NCBI GenBank assembly: GCA_016784965.1
Contig: JADHTQ010000004.1
Location: 17,990 to 81,989 of the forward strand
Length of the DNA stretch: 64,000 bases
Source of the DNA: Bacteriovoracaceae bacterium
Lineage (GTDB): Bacteria > Bdellovibrionota > Bacteriovoracia > Bacteriovoracales > Bacteriovoracaceae
Direction: 5' to 3'
In this document: positions 13,913 to 58,112 of the stretch, one piece after another
How the letters are laid out: each line of letters starts with the position of its first letter
Position numbering within the stretch: position 1 is the first letter of the stretch
Translations under genes and position numbers: made by a program
Notes under the pieces: model-generated
Databases searched by the model: none
What the model saw: only the letters and a program-made list of their open reading frames with translations
What the model was told of the DNA's origin: nothing

Positions 13913-14030
13913 CGCGGACAATCCTCCGCATAATTTATCGGTATTTTTGGCATTTAACTTTAAAATCAAAGGGTTGTTGTGGCCCTGTTTGCCAATTTTT
14001 AAGTGCCTAGGGCCCAAACAAAGCATTTAG

Positions 14031-21258: not shown

Positions 21259-21530
21259 AAATAATAATTATTTTTATCAGCGTTCTAATTTTATCATGTG
21301 ATGTAGATCGACAATTTGAAAAGAATAATTTTGATACAACTAACTTAAACCTAACACAACAAAATCATCCATACGGATATGCTAAAAAAGAGTGCTTTTA
21401 TTGCCATGTAAGGTCCAACATTCATCAACAAAATACTTTAGGAACAGATCTTTTAGATGCTGCTCGCGGTTATACAATGATTGGTGACGTTACAAGGTGC
21501 AAAGACTGTCATGGGGACAATGGGCTATGA
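21255..21530 (+). CDS. small dihaem c-type cytochrome, lipoprotein-like
   Basis: ATG at 21255 forms an ATGA overlap with the upstream stop. MKIIIIFISVLILSC is lipobox-like. Two CXXCH motifs (CFYCH, CKDCH). Confidence 0.7.
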   Translation: MKIIIIFISVLILSCDVDRQFEKNNFDTTNLNLTQQNHPYGYAKKECFYCHVRSNIHQQNTLGTDLLDAARGYTMIGDVTRCKDCHGDNGL

Positions 21531-22030
21531 AAAATCGACCTTCTGCTTTAATCATAGTTCTTATTTGCTGGATTAATGTTTCCAGTGCTTATGGAAATAG
21601 CTCTGGGAGATTAGATCCTCATGGAAAAAAAGAGATTACATCTGTTAATTTTAATCAGGTCACATGTAGTATTTGCCATGAAGAAAACAAGTTACATACA
21701 GTAAGTGCCAAGATCATTTCTCACTGCCAAACTTGCCACAATAAATCTCCACATAGTGGGCTCAAAGAGCACCTAGGCAAAGATTTGACTAAATTGAACA
21801 TTGGCATAAAGGGCAATTTAAATTGCCTTTCATGCCATCGCCCCCATCGCTTTGTTATCAAAGATAAAAAGCAACATAAATTGATAAAAAGCAACAAATC
21901 TCCATCTTTAATTTTGCGACAAAAGTGGACAAAGGAAGAACTTGCTGACAATTTTATAGTTAAAGAAAACAAAACCCCCATGTTAAGAAGATCTTGTAGT
22001 GATTGCCACACCAAGGAAAATTTACAATGA
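21527..22030 (+). CDS. periplasmic tetrahaem c-type cytochrome
   Basis: ATG at 21527 forms an ATGA overlap with the upstream stop. Signal peptide MKNRPSALIIVLICWINVSSAYG. Four CXXCH motifs (CSICH, CQTCH, CLSCH, CSDCH). Confidence 0.75.
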   Translation: MKNRPSALIIVLICWINVSSAYGNSSGRLDPHGKKEITSVNFNQVTCSICHEENKLHTVSAKIISHCQTCHNKSPHSGLKEHLGKDLTKLNIGIKGNLNCLSCHRPHRFVIKDKKQHKLIKSNKSPSLILRQKWTKEELADNFIVKENKTPMLRRSCSDCHTKENLQ

Positions 22031-24009
22031 ATACCTCAAATCTTCTTTTTTGTTCAATGCTTTTATTGCTAAGCTCTAGGCTGCTTGCCGGTGGAGAGCT
22101 GCAGTTGCGCTATAAATTTAGAACAAAAGTAATTTCACCATCGATCACAACAAGATGTGGTACTGATATTTGTGTATATAGCTTGTACAACAATCAAATT
22201 ATTAGGCTTGATAAAAACTCGGGGAAAGTAAAGTACAACATTGATCTAGGCAAAAGGATATCTAACAATTTTAAAGCGACTGCTATCGAATTCTTGCAAA
22301 ATAGTTTTCTAATTGCAGGAGTATTAAAATCTGACCCAAAAAGCTATCCTCTCTACCTGTTACCTCTAACTGATAGTGCAAAAAAAATCACTTGGCCAGG
22401 TGAGCAAAAAACCCATATTAGAGATATTAACTGCACCCAAAGAGGTTGCTTGCTGTTTGCAAACAAAGTCCATATCAGCAAAAACCAAAAAAATTGGCAA
22501 GTGTTCTCTATTCCACGAAGTGTTGACATATTGCCGGTTGGCGGCGATCTAAAGAGCAACCCATTTTTTAATTGGCAAGAAAAATTTATCGTAAGCAGAG
22601 GGAGGTATACAAGTAGTACCACGGATAATGATAATAACTTATTTGTTTTAAACTCCCTACGCAGCACTGTTGCATTTACAGATGATTCAAAGTGGGATAA
22701 CTGGAAAAAATGGGGAAAGTGGGGCGTTTGGGAAGGACAAATGATGTCTCCTAAGGCCATAGCCTACCTTAATAACTACAATGCTGTAGCAGTCGCCGAC
22801 TCCGGTCTCAAATTCATTTTTGTCTTCGATAGACAAGGCCTATATATCGGTAAAATTTCTAGCAATCCAGATAATGAAAGGCGCTTTTTATATCCTATTG
22901 ATGTGGTGGCCATTAATGATGATCTGTTTGTCGCAGATTTTTTTGCTGGTGAGCTGATTGCAATCAATATTGTTAGTCTCACTAAACCAGATAACAAAAG
23001 GCCAAAAACTGTAGACGAATTTCTCCACAAAGACTTACTAAAAGACCTACTAGACACTCCACAAGCAAAACTTAATTACTCTAAAGAAAAATGTCTAGCT
23101 TGCCATGATGGCTCTGAGAGTTTTAACTTAGATAAGTTTGTAGGTATAAAAAATCACCACCCAATAAATGTTGAAGTAAAATCAACAATTAGCTTGCCTT
23201 TAAAAGATGGAAAGTTCATCGCTTGTAATACATGTCACGATCAACATCACGACAAAACTTTGCGCAAAGAATATAAGAGTCTATGCCTTACATGCCACCA
23301 GGATAAAGCTAAACAATCTTCCAATCATTTCAACCTAAACCTGGATTTAAAGTCAAAATTAGTGCCAGGGAAAAAAGTTTCAACTTGTAAGTCGTGTCAC
23401 GCTATCCATGAAAGTGAACATAACCTAAAAATAAAAACTAACTCCCAGTTATGCTTAGACTGTCATGGAACAAAGCAAGCACCAATCTCCCATCCTTTTA
23501 AAGAAGATCACGTCCATTGCCTATCATGTCACGCACTCCATGGAGCAAAAAAATCACATAAATTTGCAAGGCATTCCAAGCCAGAAGTTAGTGATACCTG
23601 TGTAACTTGTCACTATCAGCTAAAAGTTCACCTGGGCAAAAATAAGCATTTATCTAAAAAAGATGGAAAAGTTGCCCATCCCTGGCCAGGTGGTGAAGGC
23701 GTTTGTATGGATTGTCATAATCCCCACAAGCGTAAAAAGACGGTTAAAAAACTATGTCTTAGCTGTCATAAAGACAAAAAAAGAAGCCATGTCAAAAATA
23801 ACATTATCAGTAAAACAAAAAGGGCGAAAACGGTAAAACTTGATAAGGGTCAAATGAGCTGTTTTACATGTCACAACCACCACGGAATAAGTGAGAATAA
23901 AAAATTCATAAACAACAAAAAAGATATTTTAGGGTTTTGTTCAAGCTGCCATGGGGCGAAGTCCTCTAAACTACTTAATAATTATCATAAAAGATTAAAA
24001 AGAAAGTGA
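22027..24009 (+). CDS. NHL/beta-propeller-like domain fused to an undecahaem c-type cytochrome
   Basis: ATG at 22027 forms an ATGA overlap with the upstream stop, followed by a signal peptide. The N-terminal ~330 aa has NHL-like strands (YPIDVVAINDDLFVADFFAGELIAINI). The C-terminal half has 11 CXXCH motifs, many in CxxCHxxH paired context. Confidence 0.75.
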   Translation: MNTSNLLFCSMLLLLSSRLLAGGELQLRYKFRTKVISPSITTRCGTDICVYSLYNNQIIRLDKNSGKVKYNIDLGKRISNNFKATAIEFLQNSFLIAGVLKSDPKSYPLYLLPLTDSAKKITWPGEQKTHIRDINCTQRGCLLFANKVHISKNQKNWQVFSIPRSVDILPVGGDLKSNPFFNWQEKFIVSRGRYTSSTTDNDNNLFVLNSLRSTVAFTDDSKWDNWKKWGKWGVWEGQMMSPKAIAYLNNYNAVAVADSGLKFIFVFDRQGLYIGKISSNPDNERRFLYPIDVVAINDDLFVADFFAGELIAINIVSLTKPDNKRPKTVDEFLHKDLLKDLLDTPQAKLNYSKEKCLACHDGSESFNLDKFVGIKNHHPINVEVKSTISLPLKDGKFIACNTCHDQHHDKTLRKEYKSLCLTCHQDKAKQSSNHFNLNLDLKSKLVPGKKVSTCKSCHAIHESEHNLKIKTNSQLCLDCHGTKQAPISHPFKEDHVHCLSCHALHGAKKSHKFARHSKPEVSDTCVTCHYQLKVHLGKNKHLSKKDGKVAHPWPGGEGVCMDCHNPHKRKKTVKKLCLSCHKDKKRSHVKNNIISKTKRAKTVKLDKGQMSCFTCHNHHGISENKKFINNKKDILGFCSSCHGAKSSKLLNNYHKRLKRK

Positions 24010-24016
24010 ACATTTT

Positions 24017-24181
24017 ATGACTAAAAACTTAGAACACATTCTATCAACAATATTGGCAAAAAAGACTAACAGAATTTTACTGGCCATTGTTTCTGTCGGG
24101 TTGGGCCTATTTATATCTTTATTTACGGTGTTTCAAGTTCTATTTTTGGCCAAAGTTCTTCCCCATGGAGGTCTTTGGTGA
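24017..24181 (+). CDS. unannotated 54-aa single-pass membrane protein
   Basis: Below the ORF-track size cutoff. ATG at 24017, 8 nt after the preceding stop. Translation is MTKNLEHILSTILAKKTNRILLAIVSVGLGLFISLFTVFQVLFLAKVLPHGGLW, with one clear TM helix. Its TGA overlaps the GTG at 24178 of the next gene (GTGA). Confidence 0.5.
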   Translation: MTKNLEHILSTILAKKTNRILLAIVSVGLGLFISLFTVFQVLFLAKVLPHGGLW

Positions 24182-24906
24182 AACCAATTTGGAAACATAC
24201 CATAACAATCTTCAAGTATATGCTGCCCTTTTTGGCCTTTGGCGCCCTACTTGGAGTCTATCCTGGCTATAAAGTTTACGAGCATGTTTGGAAAGACTCC
24301 AGCTTTTGTTTTAACTGCCACGTTCACGATTATGCTCATGTATCATGGACCCAAAGCTCTCACAAGGAGTTAACCACTTGCCACGATTGTCACCATCAGC
24401 CCTTGAAGGCCTATATGCTAGATGCTTACCATTATTTTATTCATGGTGCAAAATTCCCTAGAGACTTAGATCATGTTCCTCATGTTCCCAAAGATATCTG
24501 TGAAGCATGTCACTTAACCAACCCAAAAGATACCTCAACAATTACAGGTCCACTTTCGATGGACGAGATAAAGAAACTACCAAAGGTAGACCAGAAATAT
24601 CTACACAGGGTACACCTGGCAAAGAAAGTAAAACTAAAACTTTTCAAAGAATATAAAATGGGTATGAAAGAGAGAAGGGCCGAAGAAGTTGTCCTTCCCC
24701 TAACCACTCAAAAAGCAGACAAGGCAAGGCCCGTTACCTGTTCTGATTGTCATGGAGGCCTTCCCAATCGTGGACACAATTTTTCAGTAGCGGATAACTC
24801 ATGCTTACGATGCCATCCAAAAATTCACAATACCAAAATGGGGCAAAAATATGGATGTCGAAATTGTCATTTTCAAGACTTCATTAAACTATATGAGAGG
24901 AAATAA
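24178..24906 (+). CDS. NapC/NirT/NrfH-like membrane-anchored multihaem quinol dehydrogenase (six CXXCH)
   Basis: N-terminal TM helix (YMLPFLAFGALLGVYPGY) is followed directly by CFNCH, as in the NapC/NirT family. Five further CXXCH motifs follow (CHDCH, CEACH, CSDCH, CLRCH, CRNCH). Start is non-ATG: GTG at 24178 or TTG at 24175. Confidence 0.65.
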   Translation: MKPIWKHTITIFKYMLPFLAFGALLGVYPGYKVYEHVWKDSSFCFNCHVHDYAHVSWTQSSHKELTTCHDCHHQPLKAYMLDAYHYFIHGAKFPRDLDHVPHVPKDICEACHLTNPKDTSTITGPLSMDEIKKLPKVDQKYLHRVHLAKKVKLKLFKEYKMGMKERRAEEVVLPLTTQKADKARPVTCSDCHGGLPNRGHNFSVADNSCLRCHPKIHNTKMGQKYGCRNCHFQDFIKLYERK

Positions 24907-26014: not shown

Positions 26015-26275
26015 TTATGCCTTTTTGTCGCTTATAAATACTTTTCTAAGAACATCATTAATTAGAGAAGTGTAAGAAACATTATTCTTTTTTGCGATAC
26101 TTCTAATTGTCTCAAGTAGGTCTGCGTCAAAATTAGCGGTAATTTTTTCCTTGGTTGGCTTACTAAAACAAGGGAGCGACTTAATATCAATGTCTATTTT
26201 TCCAAAATAACTATCTGACATATTGTCTACCTTATTCAAAGCATTTTTCAAGTTAGGTTTATTTCTTTTTGCCAT
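26015..26275 (-). CDS. ribbon-helix-helix antitoxin-like protein (BrnA/CopG-like)
   Basis: The C-terminal ITANFDADLLETIRSIAKKNNVSYTSLINDVLRKVF matches the BrnA/RHH pattern (beta strand, helix, helix). GGGAGG lies 6 nt before the ATG. Overlaps the upstream small gene by 17 nt. Confidence 0.6.
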   Translation of the reverse strand: MAKRNKPNLKNALNKVDNMSDSYFGKIDIDIKSLPCFSKPTKEKITANFDADLLETIRSIAKKNNVSYTSLINDVLRKVFISDKKA

Positions 26276-26516
26276 GAAGGACCTCCCACTGATTCATTAA
26301 GAGATCATAGTTTCTGTAAACATATCTGATGATCCCTTTAACCGATTTTTTAGAAAACCTGGTCTTTCCCGATACTTCCAAGGTTTCTAGATATATCTTT
26401 ACTTCGGCATTGTCTCCTTTAGAGATAATATGTACATGTGGAGAACCATGTTCACGAGGGGGAGAATATACCTTTATTTGCCATTTATTGTTTTCTAAAA
26501 CGGTTCTTGTTTTCAC
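26259..26516 (-). CDS. DUF4160-family small protein (toxin-like partner)
   Basis: IKVYSPPREHGSPHVHIISKGDNAEVKIYLETLEVSG...NYDLLMNQWEVLHG follows the DUF4160 pattern (H-x-PPHxH, then a helical C-terminus ending in W). The ORF has no ATG. Candidate starts are GTG at 26516, or TTG at 26594 / GTG at 26591, and none has a clear SD. Confidence 0.55.
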   Translation of the reverse strand: MKTRTVLENNKWQIKVYSPPREHGSPHVHIISKGDNAEVKIYLETLEVSGKTRFSKKSVKGIIRYVYRNYDLLMNQWEVLHGKKK

Positions 26517-33451: not shown

Positions 33452-34780
33452 TTAGAGTGATTTAGAGATATTTTCTAACTCTTTTTTGATTAGGTTCTCT
33501 GCCAAATCGGGGATAACATCCCAAGCTACTTGCTCTACAGTTTTTTCACAAAATTGTTTAACCATTGCTTCTATGGCAGGAGATAGCGATTCTTTCAATG
33601 CATTCACCAATGCTTCTTTATCAATTGGTTCTTGTGCTGATTGTGTCTCATTAATTTCTGGCCCATTTTGCTTCTTGGGTGTCAGCTGAATTGGTCGAGC
33701 ATCTGTTTGACTTTCAGGTGCATTTGTATCGTCATCTCGATCAACTGCCCAAAACTCATCCGGTGACATATCCTTTTGAATTTCTTCTTCTAAATCAAAG
33801 CCATCTGATGAATCAAAGTTGTTTTCCTCGTTGAGTCCTAGAAAGTCAATTTCTTCTTCAGTCATACTCAATTTATCTGAAAGATCTAGTGGCCGAACCA
33901 CTTCTTCTTGATCACTTGGTTGTTTGTCTGCCTCAATATCTTCGAGCTCATCTGGTGTAATGGACTCCTGAGGTTGTATCGGTTCCTCAGGCTCAATAAT
34001 TGGTTCCTCAGGCTGAATCATGGGCTCATCTTGCTCCTTAACTGCTTCAAAACTTATAGAATCTATGAGGTTCTCAATGCCCTGGGAAATGACTGGCGGA
34101 ATTTCTAACATTTTTGCTTCATCTTCTACTTGTTCTACGCCATCAATCACTTCTGGGATCTTGATACCCCACTGCTCTATTTCTTCAGATAACATATTAG
34201 TATCAGTCTCATTTTCTAAAGGAGTCTCTTCTACTTCTAGGGGATTGTCATCTTCAACATCCATAGAAGGAGTATCAACTTCTGAGCTATCTTCAACAAT
34301 AGGTGCGTTTAGGGTCCATTCTTGATCTTTATCCTCTGGTGTCTCATCTTCAATTGCTTCAAGTTCAACTTCTCCACCAATATCTTGTTCAACAGGCCCG
34401 GAATCAATAGTAATTCCCTCACCTAACAATTTTTCACAAGTACTAATAAACTGACGGCCTTCAAAGGGTTTTACTATAGTATCGTCAACACCAACTTCTC
34501 GCAAAATATTTTCGTCAACTGTATCAAATGTTCCAAGTAGTGCCATAACTTTGCATTTTGGATTAAGGTCTTTGATACCTTTTGTAAGTTCATGGCCAGA
34601 CTTATTTTCAGACAAGGTAAAGTCTAGTAGTACTAAATCAAAGTTTGCATCCTTTAACTTGTCAAATAGGGCTTCCTCACTTGTACACTCTGTAATTTCG
34701 TATGGAGAATTTGCCAAGGTAATGCGGACAACTTTTTGGATAGTTGGACTATCATCTGCCACTAATATTTTTGATACCAT
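33452..34780 (-). CDS. response regulator: receiver domain + long acidic/Pro-rich linker + conserved C-terminal helix (RomR-like architecture)
   Basis: ILVADDSPTIQKV...DLVLLDFTL...KPF receiver motifs. The ~250-aa linker is rich in E/D/P with IQPEEPIIEPEEPIQPQE repeats. C-terminal VEQVAWDVIPDLAENLIKKELENI. GGAGG RBS. Confidence 0.7.
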   Translation of the reverse strand: MVSKILVADDSPTIQKVVRITLANSPYEITECTSEEALFDKLKDANFDLVLLDFTLSENKSGHELTKGIKDLNPKCKVMALLGTFDTVDENILREVGVDDTIVKPFEGRQFISTCEKLLGEGITIDSGPVEQDIGGEVELEAIEDETPEDKDQEWTLNAPIVEDSSEVDTPSMDVEDDNPLEVEETPLENETDTNMLSEEIEQWGIKIPEVIDGVEQVEDEAKMLEIPPVISQGIENLIDSISFEAVKEQDEPMIQPEEPIIEPEEPIQPQESITPDELEDIEADKQPSDQEEVVRPLDLSDKLSMTEEEIDFLGLNEENNFDSSDGFDLEEEIQKDMSPDEFWAVDRDDDTNAPESQTDARPIQLTPKKQNGPEINETQSAQEPIDKEALVNALKESLSPAIEAMVKQFCEKTVEQVAWDVIPDLAENLIKKELENISKSL

Positions 34781-34834
34781 TTTGTACCTCCATACATATT
34801 TTCTATCAATTTCAACTAGTTTTCAACTATAACT

Positions 34835-35578
34835 TTAATACTGCAACAGAACTGTCGTTTGATTGTCCATATTGCCTCTTGAATTAGAAATCTTAAACAA
34901 TTCTTCAATTTTGCTCTCTAAGTTGCTATGTGCAGCTTCTAAAATATACCTAACCTCCTTATCACTTATTCTGCCATAAACCCCATCTGTCATCATAATG
35001 ATTAAATCACCTGGCAAGATCCTATATTCTTTAATCATAAGCCCCAGTTGATCAAACATTCCAAACCCATTAAGTGGAGTCGTATAGAGGTGTCTGGAGT
35101 TAAAATAGTCTTGTGCAAGAGTACCTATACTTTCAGGATTTATAATTGTCTCCAGTGCTCCTTTTCGCAGAAGCAAGGTTTTGCAGTTACCAACATAAGC
35201 AAATGTTGCTACATTTTCGGCCATGGCTAAACAAATGGCCGATGCCCCTCCTTTACCAGACATTTCCTGCTTTGAATTTTCATTTTTAATTAATTCATGT
35301 GAGTGATGCATGGAATTTATTAGAGCATTTCCTTCTACTAAATATTTTGGACTATAAAAAAAAGGAAAGGTAGAATCTGGGTCGCCCCCGATTTTGGTAT
35401 ACATTGCTTTAATGTTTTCTTTTAACAGTTTGACACATTTATCTCCAACTCCAGTACCACCAAAACCATCGTAAATAGCATATAGTTTGTTCAACAAATC
35501 AATATCATAATCGTCTTCATTTACCTGAAGATATGGTCCCTGGGAAGTCTTTGCACAGTAGCTTTTAAGTGTCATCAT
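34835..35578 (-). CDS. PP2C-family Ser/Thr protein phosphatase
   Basis: YAIYDGFGGTGVG, IIMMTDGVY and NMDNQTTVLLQY match the PPM motifs. 247 aa. Confidence 0.8.
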   Translation of the reverse strand: MMTLKSYCAKTSQGPYLQVNEDDYDIDLLNKLYAIYDGFGGTGVGDKCVKLLKENIKAMYTKIGGDPDSTFPFFYSPKYLVEGNALINSMHHSHELIKNENSKQEMSGKGGASAICLAMAENVATFAYVGNCKTLLLRKGALETIINPESIGTLAQDYFNSRHLYTTPLNGFGMFDQLGLMIKEYRILPGDLIIMMTDGVYGRISDKEVRYILEAAHSNLESKIEELFKISNSRGNMDNQTTVLLQY

Positions 35579-35581
35579 AAT

Positions 35582-37825
35582 TTAGTCCAAATAGTCTTTT
35601 AGTTTTTCATCTGCCTTGCGATAATATTCGCCATCAGATGGTGAAATTTGCTTCACTTCCTGTAGTTTTTCTTTTGCATCTTCAAATAAACTTAATGACT
35701 CTGAGATAATTGCTTCCCGATAAACTTTCTTGGCCCTATTTTTGAGAGTTCTTTTAATCTCCCCCATAGATGCCAGTGATTCACTATTGGATGGGTCATG
35801 ATTTAAAATTTCTAAATAATTTTCATAAGCTCCTTTTAAATCTCTTCCCTCTCTTAATGATCTGGCTTTGCCAAGCATGGGTGCCACTACTGCTTCAAGC
35901 TCCTTTTTTGAGTCTTTTAACATTTCAATACCCTGCTTGGTCAAGTCTTCATCCATCTCTTTTATTTGCAAAAATTCATCTAATTTAATTATGGCATTAT
36001 ACCATTCTTTGCGCAGAAAGTACTTTCTGCTAGGGATTAGCATCGCCTCTTTTCGTTTTCTTTCTGCTTCTTTTGCGGCTTTTTCTCTGGCTATTTTCTC
36101 CTGCTCTTTTTGCCAAGCTTGCAATTCATTTCTAAGCAGTGGAACTTCAAAATTTTCTGGATCCATTTCTAAAATTTTGGAAAATAGCCCCTCAGCTAGT
36201 GCCATATTTCTCTCTTTTGCCGCTTTTGTCGCCCTCTCCACCAATGTTTTAATTTTATCAGCTCTTTGTTTGCGCTCTAGCTCCTCTTGTTTTTTCCTTT
36301 CAATCTCTTCTAATCTAGCTACCCCATGCTTTGCTAGCTCATACATATCTTTTGAGTGTTTATACTCCTTATCAACTGGAAACATTAGTTCAAATTCATA
36401 TATAGCATTATTGTATTTTCCACTTTCAAAATGAGATTTTGCGACTTGATAGTGGGATTCTAAAAACTCTATCTGTTCGGGAGTTAACTTCTTTTTCAAC
36501 TTGGCCATTTTTGTGCTGTTTGGATCGATATTATTAAGCAATCGAGACTTCTTCGGTTTGCCCTTTTTACCCGTTTGCTTCTTACCTCCCTCATCATCAC
36601 CCATTACCAGCCATAATACTGCAAGGCCCACAAGACCATATATTAATTTTTTTCTCTTGACCGGATCTTTTAAAATTGAAGTTTTTTCTCCTGGCTTGAC
36701 TTCAGCTCCGGTTGATCCATCTTCTCCTTCCATCCCCTCTTCAAAGGCACCACTTACTTCTACAACTTCTTCTACCTCAACAATTTGGTTTTCCTCCACC
36801 GGCATTAAGCGTTCTTCTTCTGAACTAATCAGATCAGAAGTAATCCGAACGGTGAAAGTAGTGCTACCAATTATAAATTCGTCTTCATTAATTATCTCAG
36901 AACTATTAACCCTAACTCCGTTTAACAACGTTCCATTGGCAGATTGCAAATCTGTAATGCTTACCGCACCTTTTGCTTTTTTTATTACAGCATGGGTGCT
37001 AGAGACTTCTGGATCATTGAGGATTATCTGGCACTTATCTGCATCTCTACCAATTACCACATCTTGATCTTCAATGGTAAAACTGTCATATGGAGCATAC
37101 TCGCCAAATAATTCTAATGTATATCTAGAAAAAAACTGTACTATTTGAGTGCCACCATCGCTATCATCAAATGTATCTACTGGATATTCATCGGAAGTAT
37201 CTTCACCAGAATCATCCATTTGAAATTCGCTTGCAGATCCTTCTTGGTCGCTACTAAATTCATCGCCGCCTACTTGAGAATCATCATCACTGCTTGATTC
37301 ACTATCAAATGATTGGTCTTGTTCATCACTATCAGCGTCACTCTCATTATCACCACCGATGTCGCTCTCACCCTCGGCATCGCTGCCCGGCTCACCTTCT
37401 ACTTCACTTTCACTGTCATCTTGTAAACTCTCATCCCCCTCGCCAGCTTGTTCTTCTTTGGTAGTAGTAGTCTGTGTTTCCTCACTTTCATTAGTTTTTT
37501 TTTGAGCAAAGACTTGCTCAAGCATTACATAAATCGTGTACGGACCAACACTGATAATATCTCCTGCTGCAAGCTCCTTACTTGTGATAGTGTTGCCGTT
37601 GACAAGAAGCGTGGCAAAAGTTGCAATTTTTTCAATTTTCCATTGACTATTGTAAAAAGATATTTCCGCATGTTCGCGAGAAATTTGTTTGTCATCTAAA
37701 ATTACATGGCACTCTGGCGACCGACCAATATAGAACGAAACCTTATAGTCTTTGATATTTTTAACTTCATCAGTTAAATCTAGGTCTGTTTGTTTGTTGC
37801 CATTTTTATAAATACTAAGTCTCAT
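35582..37825 (-). CDS. double-FHA domain, single-pass membrane protein with TPR-like C-terminal region
   Basis: FHA1: FYIGRSPECHVILDDKQISREHAEI...NGN. An acidic Ser/Asp/Glu linker follows. FHA2: VVIGRDADKCQIILNDPEVSSTHAVI...SANGTLLNG. TM helix LIYGLVGLAVLWLVMG, then helical-repeat/coiled-coil sequence. Confidence 0.8.
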   Translation of the reverse strand: MRLSIYKNGNKQTDLDLTDEVKNIKDYKVSFYIGRSPECHVILDDKQISREHAEISFYNSQWKIEKIATFATLLVNGNTITSKELAAGDIISVGPYTIYVMLEQVFAQKKTNESEETQTTTTKEEQAGEGDESLQDDSESEVEGEPGSDAEGESDIGGDNESDADSDEQDQSFDSESSSDDDSQVGGDEFSSDQEGSASEFQMDDSGEDTSDEYPVDTFDDSDGGTQIVQFFSRYTLELFGEYAPYDSFTIEDQDVVIGRDADKCQIILNDPEVSSTHAVIKKAKGAVSITDLQSANGTLLNGVRVNSSEIINEDEFIIGSTTFTVRITSDLISSEEERLMPVEENQIVEVEEVVEVSGAFEEGMEGEDGSTGAEVKPGEKTSILKDPVKRKKLIYGLVGLAVLWLVMGDDEGGKKQTGKKGKPKKSRLLNNIDPNSTKMAKLKKKLTPEQIEFLESHYQVAKSHFESGKYNNAIYEFELMFPVDKEYKHSKDMYELAKHGVARLEEIERKKQEELERKQRADKIKTLVERATKAAKERNMALAEGLFSKILEMDPENFEVPLLRNELQAWQKEQEKIAREKAAKEAERKRKEAMLIPSRKYFLRKEWYNAIIKLDEFLQIKEMDEDLTKQGIEMLKDSKKELEAVVAPMLGKARSLREGRDLKGAYENYLEILNHDPSNSESLASMGEIKRTLKNRAKKVYREAIISESLSLFEDAKEKLQEVKQISPSDGEYYRKADEKLKDYLD

Positions 37826-38859
37826 TACTTACTATCCCGACTTTTATCACCAAAACATTCTGTCGTTCCGACCTCAACACCCATTTTTTCTTCTACTGTA
37901 GTAATATTTTTAAGTGCTGCTTGATAGTCTTCGTGTTCTGGATATTTTTCCAATAGTCGAATTACAGAACAATAAGAAATAAATGCCGATTCATATTTCA
38001 AAGCTTCTGTTTCCTGCCTGGCCCTTTGAAAATGTACATCTATTTCAGCATCTAAATTTTGTTGGGCCTTATTTAAATAATAACTAGCACGACCATTTTT
38101 GGGGCTTAAAATAAGCGCTAAGTTAAATTCTGCTATGGCCCTAAAGAAATTACCTTCGCGCAACTCTCTTTGCCCGCGATGAAGTATCACATCTAATTTG
38201 CCTTTAATTTCATTGTCCTCTTCACGCATTTTTTTTTGCACAAGCTCAGTAAAGCTGTCTGTTGCGTCCTGCAAACCCGTCATGTTTTTTTTACTATAAA
38301 CTCTTTTCTTTTTTGGTTTTTCATCTCCCATAAACATATAAAGCAATACTCCCACACAACCAAACAGTACCAACCTAACACGGGTTTTTTGTTTTTGTTT
38401 CTCAGCTAATTCGTGCTCACTAAGGTTTGTCTCTTTTGTGTCCTCTTCCTCCTCGTCATCATCTTCATCTGTATTTTTTGCCTCTACTAGTGCCTTTTTT
38501 TGGGGATCATCTACATTAACTATATTGTACTTAAAAACTGTTTTGCCAATTATAATCGTATCTGCGTCTTTTAAACTTTGTTGTCCAATTTTTAAATCAT
38601 TAACTATCAAACCATTTTGTGAACCTAGGTCTGTGACCACATAAGTATTTTTAAATCTTTGTAGTTCTGCATGCTCTCTGGATGATTTATTATCTATGAC
38701 CATAATATCAGCTTTATCACCTCTGCCCATAACAACTCTGTTACCCTCAAGAAAGTATGACACTCCTTTGTTTTTTCCCGTCATGCATAGCAGGCGGTGA
38801 TGAATACCTGGCGCTGTCGGTAACTTGAAATTGCTAAGCTGTGTTACATTTTTGGACAT
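37825..38859 (-). CDS. FHA domain, single-pass membrane protein with TPR-like C-terminal region
   Basis: VVMGRGDKADIMVIDNKSSREHAEL...SQNGLIVN FHA motifs, DEDDDEEEED linker, TM helix VRLVLFGCVGVLLYMFMG and TPR-like repeats. 1-nt TAATG overlap with the downstream FHA gene. Confidence 0.8.
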   Translation of the reverse strand: MSKNVTQLSNFKLPTAPGIHHRLLCMTGKNKGVSYFLEGNRVVMGRGDKADIMVIDNKSSREHAELQRFKNTYVVTDLGSQNGLIVNDLKIGQQSLKDADTIIIGKTVFKYNIVNVDDPQKKALVEAKNTDEDDDEEEEDTKETNLSEHELAEKQKQKTRVRLVLFGCVGVLLYMFMGDEKPKKKRVYSKKNMTGLQDATDSFTELVQKKMREEDNEIKGKLDVILHRGQRELREGNFFRAIAEFNLALILSPKNGRASYYLNKAQQNLDAEIDVHFQRARQETEALKYESAFISYCSVIRLLEKYPEHEDYQAALKNITTVEEKMGVEVGTTECFGDKSRDSK

Positions 38860-38866
38860 TTACTTT

Positions 38867-40432
38867 TTAACTCTCCTGGATAAAGGTTATATAAAATGCC
38901 TTGGCAAAATTATCCTTTCCCATAATTGAGGTTACATATAAATTAAAATTCCTACCTGTAAGCTCATAACTACCATCTTGGCTAGTACCTCCATTGTTTG
39001 CAGAATTATCACATAGCTCAATTAAAGTTGCAGCAAATCCTCTCTCTTTGGCCACATCTAGAATGTTTTGTCCTTGAGAGACTGACATTCTAATACCGGT
39101 AATGTCTTCAGCATCTACATTTAACCGTTGTACATTTTTGGAAGAATCCAAAATCATAACCGGGACACCTGCTCCATTCATAAATTCTGCCAAAGATGTT
39201 ACATAAGGGGCATCATCTTCGGCTTCACCAAATTCTTCCTCTGTTCCATCACTTTGCAATTCTCTAATTCGCTGCAAAGTAGTATTTACTGCATTTTTTA
39301 AACTATCCAGCTCACCCATTAAATATTTGCCTTCAATCCCTTTTCTTTTGCCCCTTAGGGCCTCTTCCATTTGTAATGTCAGCTCTTCGATCGGTCTTAA
39401 AGTTAAAAAATAAATTACACCAAAAAATAACACTGCCACCAAAGCAGAAGTGGTGAGCGATTCTAAGTATGCCTTCGAATTTTTTGCGGCCTCTATCGCC
39501 AAAGATTTTGGACGAAATCTAATGGCAATTATTCCAACGGGCTCCATCGCCCCAGATTTAGCGTTATAGGCCATAATCCTTCCGGCAATACCGATTTGTC
39601 CACCTGGGAGCATTTTCTTTATAATACTGGTTCCTTCCCCCTTTACATTAACTGCCCACTCTCTGGCTTGAATGGAGAATGTATCTGAAATGAAATCATT
39701 GAGCTGTCCAATTGGCCTAACAATTCTACCTTCCAAATCAAACAGTTCGTAAGAAGCGACTCCCTGTTCTTTTTCCAAAAAGTTGGTGTTAACATTATCA
39801 AGATTATTTTGCTCAAGGGCGACAGCATTCATCCTGGCTATCTCATCAGCAAAGTGCTCCCCTCTTTTTGCAGTTTCCCATAGCAGAAGCTTCTTGCTAT
39901 CTTGTAAAACTGGAAAAATTGTAAGAGTAATTGTCACAAAGACAAATAAAGTAAGAATTAGCGCTATTAATATTTTCCACTCATATTCCTCATTGATTCC
40001 ATAAAGCAAAAGCATCAGCTTATACTTGAATTTATGCTTAATTTTTGCAATTAAACCAACAGGTACTTCATTACTACCATCAAGTGCTAACTGGGCACCA
40101 TCTTCATCGCTTTCTACTTCTTTGTGGATAATGATCTTTTTTTCCTTAACCAAAACTACTTGAATAATCAAGTTAGGTAGAGCAATTTTATCACCGCTTT
40201 TAACCGTCGCTCTTTTGATCATTTTTCCGTTCAAAAAAGTACCATTGGCACTTCCTTGATCTTCAACATACATTGCATCTTCTGTCACTGTAACACTAAG
40301 ATGTTTTTTAGAAACTCCAGGAACATCTATGCTTATATCTGCATCGGGGTCTCTTCCTAAAATATTTTCTCCCTCAGCAAGCTCAAACTCTTGCCCCCTT
40401 AATTTCCCAGCAACAATTACTAATTTATACAT
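38867..40432 (-). CDS. FHA domain, two-TM sensor-like protein with HAMP-like and PAS-like C-terminal regions
   Basis: NILGRDPDADISIDVPGVSKKHLSV...SANGTFLNG FHA motifs. Two TM helices flank a ~150-aa loop. An amphipathic HAMP-like linker precedes a C-terminal ~110-aa alpha/beta module. Confidence 0.7.
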   Translation of the reverse strand: MYKLVIVAGKLRGQEFELAEGENILGRDPDADISIDVPGVSKKHLSVTVTEDAMYVEDQGSANGTFLNGKMIKRATVKSGDKIALPNLIIQVVLVKEKKIIIHKEVESDEDGAQLALDGSNEVPVGLIAKIKHKFKYKLMLLLYGINEEYEWKILIALILTLFVFVTITLTIFPVLQDSKKLLLWETAKRGEHFADEIARMNAVALEQNNLDNVNTNFLEKEQGVASYELFDLEGRIVRPIGQLNDFISDTFSIQAREWAVNVKGEGTSIIKKMLPGGQIGIAGRIMAYNAKSGAMEPVGIIAIRFRPKSLAIEAAKNSKAYLESLTTSALVAVLFFGVIYFLTLRPIEELTLQMEEALRGKRKGIEGKYLMGELDSLKNAVNTTLQRIRELQSDGTEEEFGEAEDDAPYVTSLAEFMNGAGVPVMILDSSKNVQRLNVDAEDITGIRMSVSQGQNILDVAKERGFAATLIELCDNSANNGGTSQDGSYELTGRNFNLYVTSIMGKDNFAKAFYITFIQES

Positions 40433-40767
40433 ACAACCTCTAACTTTTCCCCTTTAGTGGCATCTGGTGGGAATTGCCCCCCAGGTAACTCTAAGACCTG
40501 AGTCGCACCAAAGTATGGCAGTGTCATACGCCACGGGGACATGTTGGTAAGAACTTTTATGATTTTAAACTCTGAATCTAAAAATATAACATCAATTTTA
40601 TAGTACATAAAACAGGTATGAACCGAGTTACATGTTTTAATTATTAACCCGTCATACCCCTCCATTTTTTTTTTAAACATAAGTCCAATAAATCTAGTCA
40701 TAAACTTATCTGCAATTTTTACATTTTGGGCAATTTCACTTCCCCTAAATTGTACCTTGTATCGCAT
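40420..40767 (-). CDS. DUF192-family protein
   Basis: RFIGLMFKK...DVIFLDSEFKIIKV...ATQVLELPGG follows the DUF192 pattern. 115 aa. Overlaps the downstream FHA gene by 13 nt. Confidence 0.6.
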   Translation of the reverse strand: MRYKVQFRGSEIAQNVKIADKFMTRFIGLMFKKKMEGYDGLIIKTCNSVHTCFMYYKIDVIFLDSEFKIIKVLTNMSPWRMTLPYFGATQVLELPGGQFPPDATKGEKLEVVCIN

Positions 40768-40887
40768 AAATTGCTTCCCATCATCTTGGACTATGCTCTT
40801 TAATATATTTTGCTTACAACTATTATGATATCAAACAACTAGAGAAAGTCATAGTGCGTGATACTTTTGCAGGGGGCATGGCATCAA

Positions 40888-51748: not shown

Positions 51749-52837
51749 ATGGTCTCACAAATATCGAAACTATATAAGCCAGACTTTAAACCGTCTGAAC
51801 TACCACCTGAATATACCCCAAGGTCCGTGGTTTTAGAGACCACTTTTGCCTGCAATATGAGGTGCCGCCATTGTGGGACTTCGTGTGGTGATATTAAAAC
51901 TGATGAGTTATCTCTAACAGAACACTTACAGTTAGCTAGTGAGCTGGCGTCTCTGGGTACCAAAGAAATATTTCTTTCTGGTGGAGAAGCATTGATGAAT
52001 CCCGACTGGATCACAATCGCCAATAAGTACGACGAGCTTGGAGTTCGCGTAGTTTTGCTATCTAATGGACTCTTAATTCCAAAAAATATTGAGGCAATTA
52101 AAAAGGCCCCTTTAGATCAAATTGCTATCAGCATTGATGGAATGGAAAAGACCCATGACCATATAAGAAAAGTTAAAGGCTCTTTTAAAAAATGCCTAGA
52201 AGCAATCACACTGATTGAAAAACAAACATCAATTAATACCTCAGTCATAACCACAGTATCAAAGTGGAATATCTCTGAGCTAGAAGATCTATATCAGGCG
52301 TTAATTGCTGTAGATAATCGTTTATGGCAACTACAAAGAGTCTTCCCCACCGGTAGAATGGATAAAGATTTCATTTTAGATTTTGATGATATTGAAAAGC
52401 TTCACAAATTTATCCATGATAAAAGACAAAATCAGTCTAAAATGATTATCACTGCTGCTTGTGATGCAACGCCGTTTTCTAAGTACAATACCAGGGATAT
52501 TGGCGACCAATATATGGGGTGTCCTGCAGGACTTGTCTGTTTGGGAATTGAGGCAAATGGCAACGTTAAAGGCTGCTTGACTCAATCTGAAGAATTTATA
52601 GAAGGAAATGTACGAAAGAAGGGGTTAACTGAAATTTGGAATAACCCTTATAATTTTGCATATAATCGTTTTTTTCACGACGATAAAGTAAAAAAGGGGT
52701 GTGTTGGTTGCGCTTATCTTGAAGATTGTCGTTGCGGTTGTGCCATCCAAGCATTTGCTGAGTCTGGTGACCGCTATGATCAGCTATTTTGTCTAAACTC
52801 ACAATATTTCAAAGACTATAATGAACAAAATAAATGA
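51749..52837 (+). CDS. radical SAM enzyme with C-terminal SPASM domain (peptide-modifying maturase-like)
   Basis: CNMRCRHC (CX3CX2C) near the N-terminus. C-terminal Cys-rich region GCPAGLVCLGIEANGNVKGC...GCVGCAYLEDCRCGCA is typical of SPASM auxiliary clusters. 362 aa. Confidence 0.8.
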   Translation: MVSQISKLYKPDFKPSELPPEYTPRSVVLETTFACNMRCRHCGTSCGDIKTDELSLTEHLQLASELASLGTKEIFLSGGEALMNPDWITIANKYDELGVRVVLLSNGLLIPKNIEAIKKAPLDQIAISIDGMEKTHDHIRKVKGSFKKCLEAITLIEKQTSINTSVITTVSKWNISELEDLYQALIAVDNRLWQLQRVFPTGRMDKDFILDFDDIEKLHKFIHDKRQNQSKMIITAACDATPFSKYNTRDIGDQYMGCPAGLVCLGIEANGNVKGCLTQSEEFIEGNVRKKGLTEIWNNPYNFAYNRFFHDDKVKKGCVGCAYLEDCRCGCAIQAFAESGDRYDQLFCLNSQYFKDYNEQNK

Positions 52838-54953
52838 TGAAAAACGATATTCATATGCTTATTTACTAAAATATTTCTACTCATTTGTAAAAAAATACAT
52901 CTTACAAGAATTTGCCGTTACACTCTTAATTGGACTAAGTATCACCGTTAATATCGGCATTCCTCTTATCAATAAAACCTTGGTAGATGATGCTATTATT
53001 GCCAAAGATCTATCTCTGCTTTTTAATATCTTATATATCTACATCGGTATCATTTTGGGGGGACAGCTAATTAACGTCACTATGGAGTACTTGCAAAACA
53101 GTGTGCAAGAGAAGATCTCCATGGATATTTATAAAATGCTGTTTAAAAAAATGCTTAGTATGAAGATGCTACCTCTTAACAACTTTTCCAACACAGAGAT
53201 AGTTAATCGCTTTATCATGGATGCAGATGCCATCAAATCTTTAATCGCTGACTTTTTTATTACGGTACTCACCCAAATAATTTATTTTTTGGGTATCCTG
53301 GTGGTGATGCTGTCGCTTTCATGGAAGCTAACTATACTGGCATTAATTCCAGTCCCCATTTACCTGGTCACTTTTTTATTCTTTAATAAAAAGATCAGAG
53401 TTATTTCTAGGCTCCTTCGCAATAAGTTTGATAACTTAACCCAATTTATTAATGAGAGTTTTTTGGGGTCTACTGAGATAAGAATTTCAGGTAGCACCAA
53501 TTTTGTGTATTCAAAGTTTCAAGATAAAATCCTCTCTATTTTCAATGTGGCAATGAAAAGTGTCGTCCAAAGTAATGCCATTTCAGTAGTCATAGGTCTT
53601 ATAACCGCTTCGGGCAACTTGATTTTATGGTTTTATGGAGGATATTTAGTTATCGAAGGCCAGCTAAGCTTGGGCACCCTCTTTGCGCTTTCTGCTTATA
53701 TCGGTCAATTATACGATCCCATAAATATCTTGGCAGGTAGAAATTTTAAAATTCAATCTTCAATCTTTGCCATCGAGCGAATCCATGATTTTTTAAACCA
53801 ACCCCAGGAGCCCCTTTGGGATCAAAGCGAGTCTAAATATGAAAAAGGCTTTAGGGATTCTATCAAAGTATCAGGACTATCATTTAATTACCCAGAATCA
53901 ACTGATCTTGTAATCGATAATAAATCATTTGAGATAAATAAGGGTGATCGAATTTTGTTAACCGGTGCTAATGGATCGGGCAAGTCTACATTCATCAATA
54001 TTTTACTTCGCTTATATGATCACCAGCTAGGTGTAATTAAAATTGATAACACAAACATCCAACAAATTCCCATCCAGCAGTATAGAAGCCTATTTGCTTA
54101 TGTGCCTCAACACCCCTTTTTATTTGAAGGAACTGCTACCAGTAACATCTCGATGTTAGATACAAACGCTAACTTAAACAATTTTAAAAAATTCTTATCT
54201 AGGCTGCCTTTTTTAGACTTCTTCTCTAAAAAAAGTGGTCCCTATTCGGTCAGCAACAATGGCAACAACTTATCAGGTGGACAAAAGCAAAAGCTCAGCC
54301 TACTTAGATCTCTATACAAAGATGCACCAATAATCATTATAGATGAAGGGACTTCCAATATTGATGCCGAGTCTCTTTCTAAATTTGATCAATTTATTGA
54401 AAATAATTTGCAAGACAAAACTATCATCAGGGTTTCCCATAACCAAAATGAACATCTAAAAAATTATAAATTTATCCATTTTGACCGCATCATGCCCCAA
54501 GTATATCAAGATAAAATTATAAAATTAATACAAGAAAATAAACTAGACAGTGCAAAAGAGGCAATTGAGTCCCTGTTAAAGCATTATCAAGACATCAATT
54601 TATTTAAAAACTTGGCCTTTATAAAGTATATGCAAGGCAATTTCTCTGAATGCCTTACACTTAATCAAAAGGCATTACAAATTGATCCCGGTGATGTCTA
54701 CGCCACCAAGGGGCTAGGTCTGGCCTTCGCTAAACTGGGAGACTTAGAAAAAGGAATAGAGCATTTAAAGTCGGCCCAAACCCTTGATTCGACATACTTT
54801 GATCCATTTTACGACATGGCCGTAATATACTACGAAAATGGACAATTTGAAAATGCCTTAAAAACACTAAAGTTGACTCCTGTTAGCTCAAATGAGGAGC
54901 GGGACTTAGTTGCAAACTTTATCCAGAGTATAAAAAAAGATGACAAGATATAA
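52821..54953 (+). CDS. ABC exporter (fused TMD-NBD) with C-terminal TPR extension
   Basis: Six predicted TM helices, Walker A GANGSGKST, signature LSGGQKQKLSLLRSL and Walker B IIIIDEGTS. A ~150-aa TPR-like tail follows (FKNLAFIKYMQGNFSECLTLNQKALQIDP...). No N-terminal C39 peptidase domain. Overlaps the rSAM gene by 17 nt. Confidence 0.8.
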   Translation: MNKINDEKRYSYAYLLKYFYSFVKKYILQEFAVTLLIGLSITVNIGIPLINKTLVDDAIIAKDLSLLFNILYIYIGIILGGQLINVTMEYLQNSVQEKISMDIYKMLFKKMLSMKMLPLNNFSNTEIVNRFIMDADAIKSLIADFFITVLTQIIYFLGILVVMLSLSWKLTILALIPVPIYLVTFLFFNKKIRVISRLLRNKFDNLTQFINESFLGSTEIRISGSTNFVYSKFQDKILSIFNVAMKSVVQSNAISVVIGLITASGNLILWFYGGYLVIEGQLSLGTLFALSAYIGQLYDPINILAGRNFKIQSSIFAIERIHDFLNQPQEPLWDQSESKYEKGFRDSIKVSGLSFNYPESTDLVIDNKSFEINKGDRILLTGANGSGKSTFINILLRLYDHQLGVIKIDNTNIQQIPIQQYRSLFAYVPQHPFLFEGTATSNISMLDTNANLNNFKKFLSRLPFLDFFSKKSGPYSVSNNGNNLSGGQKQKLSLLRSLYKDAPIIIIDEGTSNIDAESLSKFDQFIENNLQDKTIIRVSHNQNEHLKNYKFIHFDRIMPQVYQDKIIKLIQENKLDSAKEAIESLLKHYQDINLFKNLAFIKYMQGNFSECLTLNQKALQIDPGDVYATKGLGLAFAKLGDLEKGIEHLKSAQTLDSTYFDPFYDMAVIYYENGQFENALKTLKLTPVSSNEERDLVANFIQSIKKDDKI

Positions 54954-55878: not shown

Positions 55879-55882
55879 AAAT

Positions 55883-58099: not shown

Positions 58100-58112
58100 C
58101 TCTATTACCTCA

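Follow-up and report, generated by a model that had tools for sequence, protein, structure and literature searches.

Which cellular machine would be served by an operon that encodes several readers and an eraser of phosphothreonine (pThr), and no kinase? The question is raised by a minus-strand operon in a 64,000-nucleotide (nt) stretch of the genome of a Bacteriovoracaceae bacterium (contig JADHTQ010000004.1, positions 17,990 to 81,989; the whole stretch is hereafter called the window), comprising genes for three membrane proteins with FHA domains, a PP2C phosphatase and a response regulator (RR). Based on the comparisons described below, the operon is very likely a Tad-associated accessory module joined to a gene of the RomR family. 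The fuller reading, which we favour with somewhat less assurance, is that it represents the Bacteriovoracales version of the tadC accessory/regulatory operon of the Bdellovibrionota (Tad, type IVc, Kil-like), extended at its 3' end by the RomR-family gene, gated by pThr and targeted to the pole; the gating mechanism taken by itself is a tentative proposal, held with slightly less than even confidence. The module bears on how prey contact leads to pole-specific pilus action and invasion in obligate predators.

The operon consists of six co-directional open reading frames (ORFs) in the order DUF192, FHA521, FHA344, FHA747, PP2C and RR, with the FHA proteins named by their lengths in amino acids (aa), and the coordinates give junctions of -13, +7, -1, +3 and +54 nt from DUF192 to RR. 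A first-pass annotation, made from the letters alone, had given the same minus-strand gene order, coordinates and junctions, and its domain calls agree with Pfam:

40768..40887, minus strand: intergenic region between nagZ and DUF192, 120 nt; the site of the TadC-like gene of relatives
40420..40767, minus strand: DUF192 (COG1430) protein, 115 aa (Pfam, 9.4e-17)
38867..40432, minus strand: FHA521, FHA-sensor protein, 521 aa (Pfam FHA, 3.4e-16; a weak PAS match, 0.0066)
37825..38859, minus strand: FHA344, FHA-transmembrane (TM) protein, 344 aa (Pfam FHA, 1.3e-14)
35582..37825, minus strand: FHA747, FHA-FHA-TM-TPR protein, 747 aa (Pfam, two FHA, 1.7e-30; a weak TPR_2 match, 9e-4)
34835..35578, minus strand: PP2C (PPM) Ser/Thr phosphatase, 247 aa (Pfam, 28.3 bits against a cutoff of 20.3)
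33452..34780, minus strand: RR, RomR-family response regulator, 442 aa (Pfam Response_reg, 7.4e-16)

Pfam detected no kinase domain (Pkinase) and no domain of type II secretion, type IV pilus or Tad systems, of type III secretion systems (T3SS) or of type VI secretion systems (T6SS) in any window ORF of at least 150 aa, and six-frame translations of the window contained no Hanks-type catalytic-loop motif, in line with the earlier statement that the window holds neither a kinase nor a secretion-system gene. The lack of a kinase extends to relatives: among 80 related loci, all from Bacteriovoracales and collected by an alignment-based scan with one genome per species, a catalytic-loop scan of 1.3 Mb revealed no Hanks kinase within 10 kb of the module.

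Synteny in relatives, proposed as a check by the first-pass annotation, was complete. The six genes were found in the same order in all Bacteriovoracales loci with enough upstream sequence (58/58, tblastn), and the cluster is thus conserved far beyond chance. Median junctions in the relatives were -13, 0, -38 and +2 nt, and the gap ahead of RR measured about 72 nt; these values are approximate, as starts were taken from the longest ORFs. DUF192, present in 58/58 loci, always directly follows tadC in the relatives and overlaps the next gene by a median of 13 nt. In each of the 57 relatives holding both nagZ and DUF192, a co-directional ORF of 299-540 aa lies between these two genes, and the seven such ORFs that were scanned with Pfam each carry a single T2SSF domain. 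This domain is the signature of the TadB/TadC inner-membrane platform proteins.

Three further loci (L083-L085) were found by re-querying with one FHA521 representative (FHA+PAS proteins of Bdellovibrionales, Bdellovibrionia, Oligoflexia and 'Bdellovibrionota FG-1/FG-2'). They encode, in order, a T2SSF protein, DUF192, an FHA/PAS protein (~540 aa), an FHA protein (~320-340 aa), an FHA-FHA-TPR protein (738-819 aa) and a PP2C-like protein of 247-257 aa. All 57 Bacteriovoracales T2SSF proteins are ~43% identical to those of L083-L085, and the window proteins match their positional counterparts over the full length: DUF192 at 1e-12 (L083, L084), FHA521 at 1e-44 to 1e-47, FHA344 at 1e-24 to 1e-34 (the second FHA gene), FHA747 at 1e-52 to 1e-60 and PP2C at 1e-24 to 1e-28. 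In L083 and L085 no RR follows the PP2C-like gene, and directly next are genes for a Flp pilin, an A24 prepilin peptidase, TadE, RcpC, a secretin and a ParA/CbiA-T2SSE fusion (TadZ-TadA); the L084 contig ends just past the PP2C-like gene. The contiguous module and core tad locus is probably the ancestral state, later split in Bdellovibrio bacteriovorus and in Bacteriovoracales. The joint arrangement with flp, tadV, tadE, rcpC, rcpA and the tadZ-tadA fusion spans positions 7696-19620 of L083 and 7688-19623 of L085, and in L083 the PP2C-like gene is separated from flp by an additional 550-aa gene that lacks annotation.

The published counterpart is found in B. bacteriovorus HD100, where Bd0470 (tadC) heads one operon with Bd0471-Bd0475 (PMC12034629); this tadC gene is located outside the main tad locus and has FHA, TPR and PAS genes as neighbours (bioRxiv 10.64898/2026.07.08.737194). 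A tadC transposon mutant does not attach to prey, while a Bd0474 mutant attaches and neither kills nor rounds the prey (PMC6561027). The first-pass annotation had taken the window operon as a free-standing module outside any secretion or pilus system, unless a known accessory set should account for it. Such a set does: a TadC-like gene heads the operon in 57/57 relatives, a complete Tad locus is contiguous with it in two other Bdellovibrionota lineages and Bd0470-Bd0475 match in gene order, domains and lengths, so the free-standing view is given up here.

The same evidence bears on whether the module instead controls cell-envelope or peptidoglycan growth, unrelated to pili, as does the mycobacterial fhaA-fhaB-pstP-rodA-pbpA-pknA-pknB cluster. 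FHA genes followed by PP2C recall the order fhaA-fhaB-pstP, NCBIfam FhaB/FipA models match at 1e-14 to 1e-20, and the neighbourhood includes nagZ, which is conserved there, and mreB, 4.6 kb upstream of DUF192. The FhaB matches, however, reach 52-71 bits against a cutoff of 125 and cover the FHA domain only, the operon contains no rodA, pbpA or kinase gene, and nagZ is on the opposite strand in L083-L085. With tadC as the first gene in every one of the 57 relatives, the whole Tad locus following in L083 and L085, and a Bd0474 mutant phenotype that concerns a stage of predation (PMC6561027), we regard envelope-growth control as very improbable.

FHA membrane proteins and the phosphatase

All three FHA proteins lack a signal peptide, begin with FHA and carry TM segments, i.e. 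they have an N-in topology. Their domains are placed as follows:

40142-40432, minus strand: FHA521, cytoplasmic FHA domain (residues 1-97)
39917-39973, minus strand: FHA521, TM1, hydrophobic segment (residues 154-172)
39446-39916, minus strand: FHA521, periplasmic alpha/beta Cache/PAS-like domain (residues ~173-329)
39389-39445, minus strand: FHA521, TM2, hydrophobic segment (residues 330-348), followed by a helical HAMP-like linker
38876-39211, minus strand: FHA521, cytoplasmic PAS domain (residues 408-519), confident in the AlphaFold model
38530-38784, minus strand: FHA344, FHA domain (residues 26-110), followed by an acidic linker
38323-38379, minus strand: FHA344, TM, hydrophobic segment (residues 161-179)
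37526-37750, minus strand: FHA747, FHA1 (residues ~26-100), followed by a Ser/Thr/Asp/Glu-rich linker
36848-37084, minus strand: FHA747, FHA2 (residues 248-326)
36599-36646, minus strand: FHA747, TM (residues ~394-409), followed by a periplasmic TPR/coiled-coil tail

An AlphaFold model of FHA521, built on a 40-sequence alignment (mean predicted local distance difference test score, pLDDT, of 83), shows in order an FHA domain, a disordered linker, TM1 running into a long periplasmic helix, an alpha/beta domain (~217-306), TM2, a HAMP-like helix and PAS. The top fold match in the PDB was the WalK sensor region (Foldseek E 8.9e-14, 389 aligned columns). The protein ends after PAS, with neither the DHp (HisKA) nor the HATPase_c domain in Pfam or in the model, and thus lacks a kinase core; as modelled, FHA521 is a WalK-like transmembrane sensor without its catalytic half. 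A role as sensor histidine kinase was rejected on account of the missing DHp and HATPase_c domains, the likeness to WalK being confined to the sensor half. Full-length orthologues occur across the Bdellovibrionota, with 145 representatives at E<=1e-30 in an exhaustive HMMER search, many of them at 24-30% identity over the full length.

The first-pass annotation had assigned periplasmic-repeat tails to all three FHA proteins. This holds for FHA747 and FHA344, both of the helical-repeat type (the FHA344 tail is helical and probably TPR-like), while FHA521 carries the Cache/PAS-like sensor in that position. FHA747 has the same architecture as Bd0474, with two cytoplasmic FHA domains and an extracytoplasmic TPR region (PMC12034629), and is its counterpart, as FHA344 is that of the FHA protein Bd0473. 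Bd0474 binds the TPR protein Bd0075 in two-hybrid assays (PMC12034629); a comparison of FHA747 with Bd0474 via the published Bd0075-contact residues (N382, Y384, M385 etc.) gave at best 5/12, the same as shuffled sequence.

The pThr-binding residues, whose conservation the first-pass annotation had singled out for checking, are intact in three of the four FHA domains: the G-R, S-x-x-H, S-x-N-G and N residues of FHA521, FHA344 and FHA747-FHA2 are kept in 52-63 of 59-63 orthologues. They bear directly on whether the FHA proteins could instead build a structural ring or scaffold in the Tad basal body without any part for phosphorylation, like SctD (YscD/PrgH), with PP2C in an unrelated or vestigial role. 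Such a structure would fit the matches of all four FHA domains to Pfam Yop-YscD_cpl (1e-13 to 3e-28), the presence of the YscD and PscD cytoplasmic domains among the fold matches of FHA521, the PrgH-like label of MXAN_4649 beside kilH in Myxococcus xanthus, the lack of an SxNG loop in FHA747-FHA1 and the absence of a cis kinase from 1.3 Mb of related loci. We nonetheless consider it unlikely: the pThr ligands Arg, Ser, His and Asn are conserved in at least 95% of orthologues for three FHA domains, the best structural matches are the true pThr readers GarA, FhaA and Bdellovibrio DgcB, on which the FHA domain of FHA521 superposes with a root-mean-square deviation (rmsd) of ~1 A, and the accompanying PP2C has a complete metal-binding site conserved in 76-77/77 orthologues and across the Bdellovibrionota.

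The phosphatase aligns over its full length with NCBIfam Stp1 (4e-17) and with its best PDB match, the T6SS phosphatase PppA (6jkv, 7.6e-9). The motifs NED, DGxGG, DG and DN are kept in 76-77/77 orthologues, the conserved residues being N20, E21, D22, D37, G38, D198, G199, D238 and N239. The same four motifs are kept in the L083-L085 counterparts, which have no Pfam match. Judged by these residues, PP2C is catalytically intact; it is the counterpart of Bd0475, published as a 'hypothetical' protein that is predicted to bind Bd0473 with an ipTM of 0.60 (PMC12034629).

With PppA as the best PDB match of PP2C and NCBIfam TagH (VI_FHA) matching FHA747 at 7e-22, one could take the module for a remnant or satellite of the T6SS threonine-phosphorylation pathway (Fha/TagH-PppA-PpkA). 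This explanation is effectively refuted by gene content, since neither a T6SS core gene nor PpkA is found in the window or beside the module in 83 related loci; moreover, the TagH match, at 78.7 bits, stays below the cutoff of 120 and is limited to FHA regions.

The RomR-family regulator and a model for the module

The last protein of the operon, RR, is divided into three parts:

34421-34780, minus strand: receiver domain REC (residues 1-120), with D9, D10, D53, T84 and K104
residues 121-385 of RR, minus strand: acidic disordered linker of low complexity, variable in length across relatives
33455-33625, minus strand: conserved helical RomR-C region (residues 386-442)

At least 77 of the 80 orthologues retain the phosphorylation-related residues D9, D10, D53, T84 and K104, and all 80 have D10, D53 and K104. 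Homologues of RR occur in Halobacteriovorax, Bacteriovorax and other Bacteriovoracaceae. As a named family, RomR was not found in the databases, and cluster look-ups on RomR-like and FHA521-like representatives yielded almost no protein names. A sequence presumed to be that of M. xanthus RomR was therefore used as a search hook for a comparison set, and for nothing more. The hook returned Myxococcaceae proteins 83-91% identical to it. It also retrieved full-length matches, 300-370 aa long, in which D53 is present, the linker is rich in Pro and the C-terminus reads '...EKIAWEVVPQLAE.IIREE..'. The resulting Myxococcaceae/Myxococcota set is characterized by REC (D53), by its Pro-rich linker and by an 'IAWEVVPQLAE.IIRE' helix at the C-terminus.

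The 442-aa RR matches a member of this set, P0214, in both REC (BLASTP, E 3e-14) and the C-terminus (E 6e-8), and profile-profile alignment of RR with the set by hhalign gave a probability of 99.8%. A hidden Markov model (HMM) of RomR-C, built from the last 51 residues of 80 window-family proteins, recognizes 32 of the proteins returned by the hook (4e-14 to 2e-6), P0244 of the Myxococcaceae among them. As defined in the literature, RomR begins with REC, continues with an unstructured linker that is not conserved, and ends in a helical region that is (PMC3441718). By these sequence comparisons RR belongs to the RomR family, and the RomR-like regulator named by the first-pass annotation is upheld by the REC and RomR-C matches, hhalign and the HMM.

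The linker of RR is acidic, with 85 Asp and Glu among 265 residues. A 'D/E-x-T-D/N-P' linker motif was considered as a candidate pThr site and dropped because it is present in only 17/80 RR sequences and absent from RR of the window. The RomR-like linkers also hold the short motifs W-x-V-D, E-x-W-G and F-W-A-V-D (RR orthologues L003-L082), and W155, W204 and F343-W344-A345 are invariant or nearly so in a 22-sequence RR alignment (A1); these W/F motifs may serve in docking.

In B. bacteriovorus, the one species for which a functional link to the Tad pilus is documented, the Tad machine is located at the invasive pole and is essential for stable attachment and invasion; its polar localization depends on RomR, which determines where the Tad secretin is placed and interacts with the TadZ portion of TadZA (bioRxiv 10.64898/2026.07.08.737194). 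The attachment of a RomR-family gene to the operon provides independent genomic support for the RomR-Tad connection shown in Bdellovibrio. Control of invasion by pThr also has a precedent, as recognition of pThr by an FHA domain gates invasion through Bdellovibrio DgcB, the kinase being unlinked and still to be identified (PMC6733907).

A model for the module can be drawn from these components. The three N-in FHA proteins would present their FHA domains, as readers of pThr, on the cytoplasmic side of the Tad platform while extending into the periplasm, where two of them may dock envelope proteins via their TPR-like tails, for which the Bd0474-Bd0075 two-hybrid interaction is a precedent (PMC12034629), and where FHA521 is predicted to extend via its Cache/PAS-like sensor before returning to a HAMP-like linker and PAS. 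An unlinked Hanks-type kinase would phosphorylate Thr on one or more partners, with the TadZ-TadA ATPase, RomR and the acidic, Ser/Thr-rich linkers within the FHA proteins as candidate substrates, possibly upon prey or envelope contact sensed by FHA521. Binding of pThr by FHA would then assemble or activate the Tad machine, PP2C would erase the mark and reset the system, and the RomR-family protein would target the complex to the prey-contact pole, as suggested by Bdellovibrio RomR-TadZA (bioRxiv 10.64898/2026.07.08.737194). As REC of RR retains all phospho-acceptor residues, unlike RomR of B. bacteriovorus, a His-Asp input is also possible. All that concerns the kinase, what it phosphorylates and how the steps follow one another is inferred, as is the applicability of the model to a genome with tadC outside the operon. 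The Thr-gated transmembrane scaffold tied to polarity that the first-pass annotation had suggested thus survives in recast form, as possible control of a Tad pilus.

Several points weigh against the operon being a pThr-gated, pole-targeted Tad accessory operon. With the proteins of the 57 relatives as tblastn queries, the TadC-like gene was found nowhere in the 64-kb window (best E 0.046), so that, for this organism, the physical link to Tad seen in relatives is lacking in operon and window alike. The equivalence with Bd0471-Bd0475 is based on published gene order, domains and lengths and on matches to other Bdellovibrionota loci, and Bd0470-Bd0475 go unmentioned in the accessible parts of the text and supplements of the proximity-labelling paper on B. 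bacteriovorus RomR. The label 'RomR' for the Myxococcota set is based on a presumed M. xanthus sequence and on agreement with published descriptors; no source names these proteins RomR. The spacer between PP2C and RR, 54 nt in the window versus a median of ~72 nt in relatives, makes independent transcription of RR possible, and RR may have its own promoter. In B. bacteriovorus, romR is a single-gene operon elsewhere in the genome (PMC6428892). As for the mechanism, the kinase, phosphosites and interactions are all hypothetical, and FHA747-FHA1 is partly degenerate, retaining GR and the S and H of SxxH.

The missing tadC would also fit a module that is uncoupled from Tad in this organism, tadC having been lost or moved, and that acts on the type IVa pilus (T4aP), gliding or general polarity via the RomR-like protein. 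The window is alone among the 58 loci in lacking the gene, with nagZ and DUF192 120 nt apart, and the same arrangement is present in two independent assemblies (L001, L002), making an assembly artefact unlikely; in addition, the RomR hubs of B. bacteriovorus also connect to T4aP components (PMC11025332; bioRxiv 10.64898/2026.07.08.737194). Yet B. bacteriovorus normally has its tad genes spread across six loci (bioRxiv 10.64898/2026.07.08.737194), which makes relocation of tadC the simpler reading, and all six remaining genes are intact with their functional residues conserved. We therefore judge uncoupling from Tad improbable and retain the Tad accessory operon with its RomR-family extension as the preferred reading.

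Taken further, this reading would make the RomR hub and the Tad FHA/PP2C module one genetic unit in Bacteriovoracales, in which a signal of prey or envelope contact, sensed by the kinase-less, WalK-like FHA521, is converted to pThr, the FHA scaffold licenses Tad at the RomR pole and the receiver adds a His-Asp input, with tadC located elsewhere or dispensed with. This extension is speculative and we regard it as doubtful; if true, the module would connect prey contact with polarity and pilus firing in invasive predators, a link that has long been sought.

In the literature searched we did not find that the 'hypothetical' last gene of the tadC operon encodes a conserved PP2C, catalytically intact by its motifs, that the first FHA protein is, according to the model, a WalK-like sensor without kinase core, or that the module and the core tad locus are contiguous in some Bdellovibrionota. 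Likewise, no paper was found that notes the attachment of a RomR-family gene to the tadC operon, which holds throughout Bacteriovoracales (58/58 loci). The FHA clefts, PP2C and the RomR REC domain are concrete targets for studying pThr control of a Tad machine, and while the module is not a new kind of system, it is useful and testable for the fields of predatory bacteria and pili.

Operon flanks and other features of the window

At the 3' side of RR the window has the convergent gene gpsA, while in relatives RR is followed by housekeeping birA (on the other strand) and then rph, rdgB, smc and lolA; since the genes downstream of RR in relatives are housekeeping genes, RR forms the 3' boundary of the module. 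At the 5' end, the gap between nagZ and DUF192 is probably the promoter region of the operon in this genome. A promoter and terminator scan was uninformative, its counts equalling shuffled expectation, and shuffled sequence contains promoter-like hexamers such as those at 40852-40807 at least as often. For DUF192, a literature search combining it with pili gave nothing informative, and the one PDB match is an uncharacterized protein (3m7a, E 0.09). The adjoining nagZ, encoding a GH3 peptidoglycan-recycling glycosidase, is a conserved neighbour of the module phylum-wide (L003-L085); it runs in the direction of the module in Bacteriovoracales and divergently, on the opposite strand, in L083-L085.

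Elsewhere, the window contains the following:

6644-14026, minus strand: giant 2460-aa protein whose lone Pfam match is to LVIVD repeats near the C-terminus; it may be surface- or adhesin-like
20626-24906, plus strand: run of multihaem c-type cytochromes (Cytochrome_C7/c3, Paired_CXXCH_1, MtrC/MtrF-like), a set resembling those for extracellular electron transfer and unexpected in a Bacteriovoracales predator
~26015-26516: small gene pair for DUF4160 and a CopG antitoxin (L001 gene table), probably a toxin-antitoxin module
51749-57043: radical SAM/SPASM enzyme, ATP-binding cassette (ABC) exporter with a C-terminal TPR extension, a 312-aa protein and, on the other strand, a second radical SAM enzyme; the set resembles a peptide-maturation cluster of the type for ribosomally synthesized and post-translationally modified peptides (RiPP-like)
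57122-60620, minus strand: MotA/ExbB-like channel protein, then a long 835-aa MotB_plug...OmpA protein; the two may be a gliding- or Tol-like motor pair
60691-63537, minus strand: 948-aa protein with a spermine/spermidine-synthase domain and a C-terminal 4Fe-4S (Fer4_5) segment

Comparison with known systems

In topology the FHA proteins resemble SctD (YscD/PrgH) of the T3SS, a basal-body component whose cytoplasmic FHA fold is joined by a single TM to a periplasmic domain. SctD, however, has FHA folds without pThr residues and periplasmic ring-building motifs, whereas the module has conserved pThr residues and helical-repeat tails. Membership of the SctD family was rejected, as NCBIfam type_III_yscD gave 23-29 bits against a cutoff of 86, in the FHA region only. 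Residues ~130-520 of FHA521 share with WalK-type kinases the succession of TM, extracytoplasmic PAS/Cache, TM, HAMP and PAS; unlike WalK, the protein has neither DHp nor a catalytic domain and carries an additional N-terminal FHA domain.

The logic is similar to that of the PpkA-PppA-Fha1/TagH pathway of the Pseudomonas aeruginosa T6SS, where the contact-dependent assembly of an envelope-spanning machine is governed by readers of the FHA type and a PP2C eraser, and PppA is the nearest solved phosphatase to PP2C of the window. Unlike the T6SS pathway, the module has no co-encoded kinase and no T6SS genes, and its FHA proteins are membrane-anchored with periplasmic domains.

Closer in gene context is the Kil system of M. 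xanthus (MXAN_3104, KilF, KilD, MXAN_4648 and MXAN_4649; PMC8460266), whose clusters have been noted as FHA-rich. The Bd0470 orthologue kilH adjoins MXAN_4648 (FHA+TPR) and MXAN_4649 (FHA, PrgH-like; PMC8460266, supplementary files 18 and 19), so that, as in the module, FHA and FHA+TPR genes stand beside a TadC orthologue. Both are linked to a Tad-like machine associated with predation, with pThr signalling suspected and no known kinase. In contrast to the module, no PP2C or RomR is reported for the kil clusters; Kil furthermore assembles at lateral prey contacts rather than at the pole, and the KilF ATPase is itself fused to FHA.

The RomR proteins of M. xanthus (MXAN_4461) and B. bacteriovorus (Bd2761) share with RR the combination of REC, a disordered non-conserved linker and a helical RomR-C of ~50 aa; D53 is conserved, and REC as well as the C-terminus match. 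RomR is further marked by polar localization and by acting together with MglA, RomX and SgmX. The linker is Pro-rich in RomR and acidic in RR. REC is truncated in B. bacteriovorus RomR (PMC6428892) and complete in RR, and while romR is a lone gene in HD100, the RR gene is attached to a Tad accessory operon.

The closest known counterpart of the whole operon is Bd0470-Bd0475 of HD100, which belongs to the same phylum as the window organism and shares its predatory lifestyle. Both operons encode, after tadC in HD100, a small protein, an FHA/PAS protein, an FHA protein (386 aa for Bd0473 versus 344 aa in the window), an FHA-FHA-TM-TPR protein (674 aa for Bd0474 versus 747 aa) and a PP2C-sized protein of ~230-250 aa (228 aa for Bd0475 versus 247 aa; HD100 lengths from PMC12034629). 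The HD100 operon includes tadC, whereas that of the window is without tadC and has the RomR-family gene appended, and while the literature lists Bd0475 as 'hypothetical', the corresponding proteins in this analysis are evidently PP2C enzymes.

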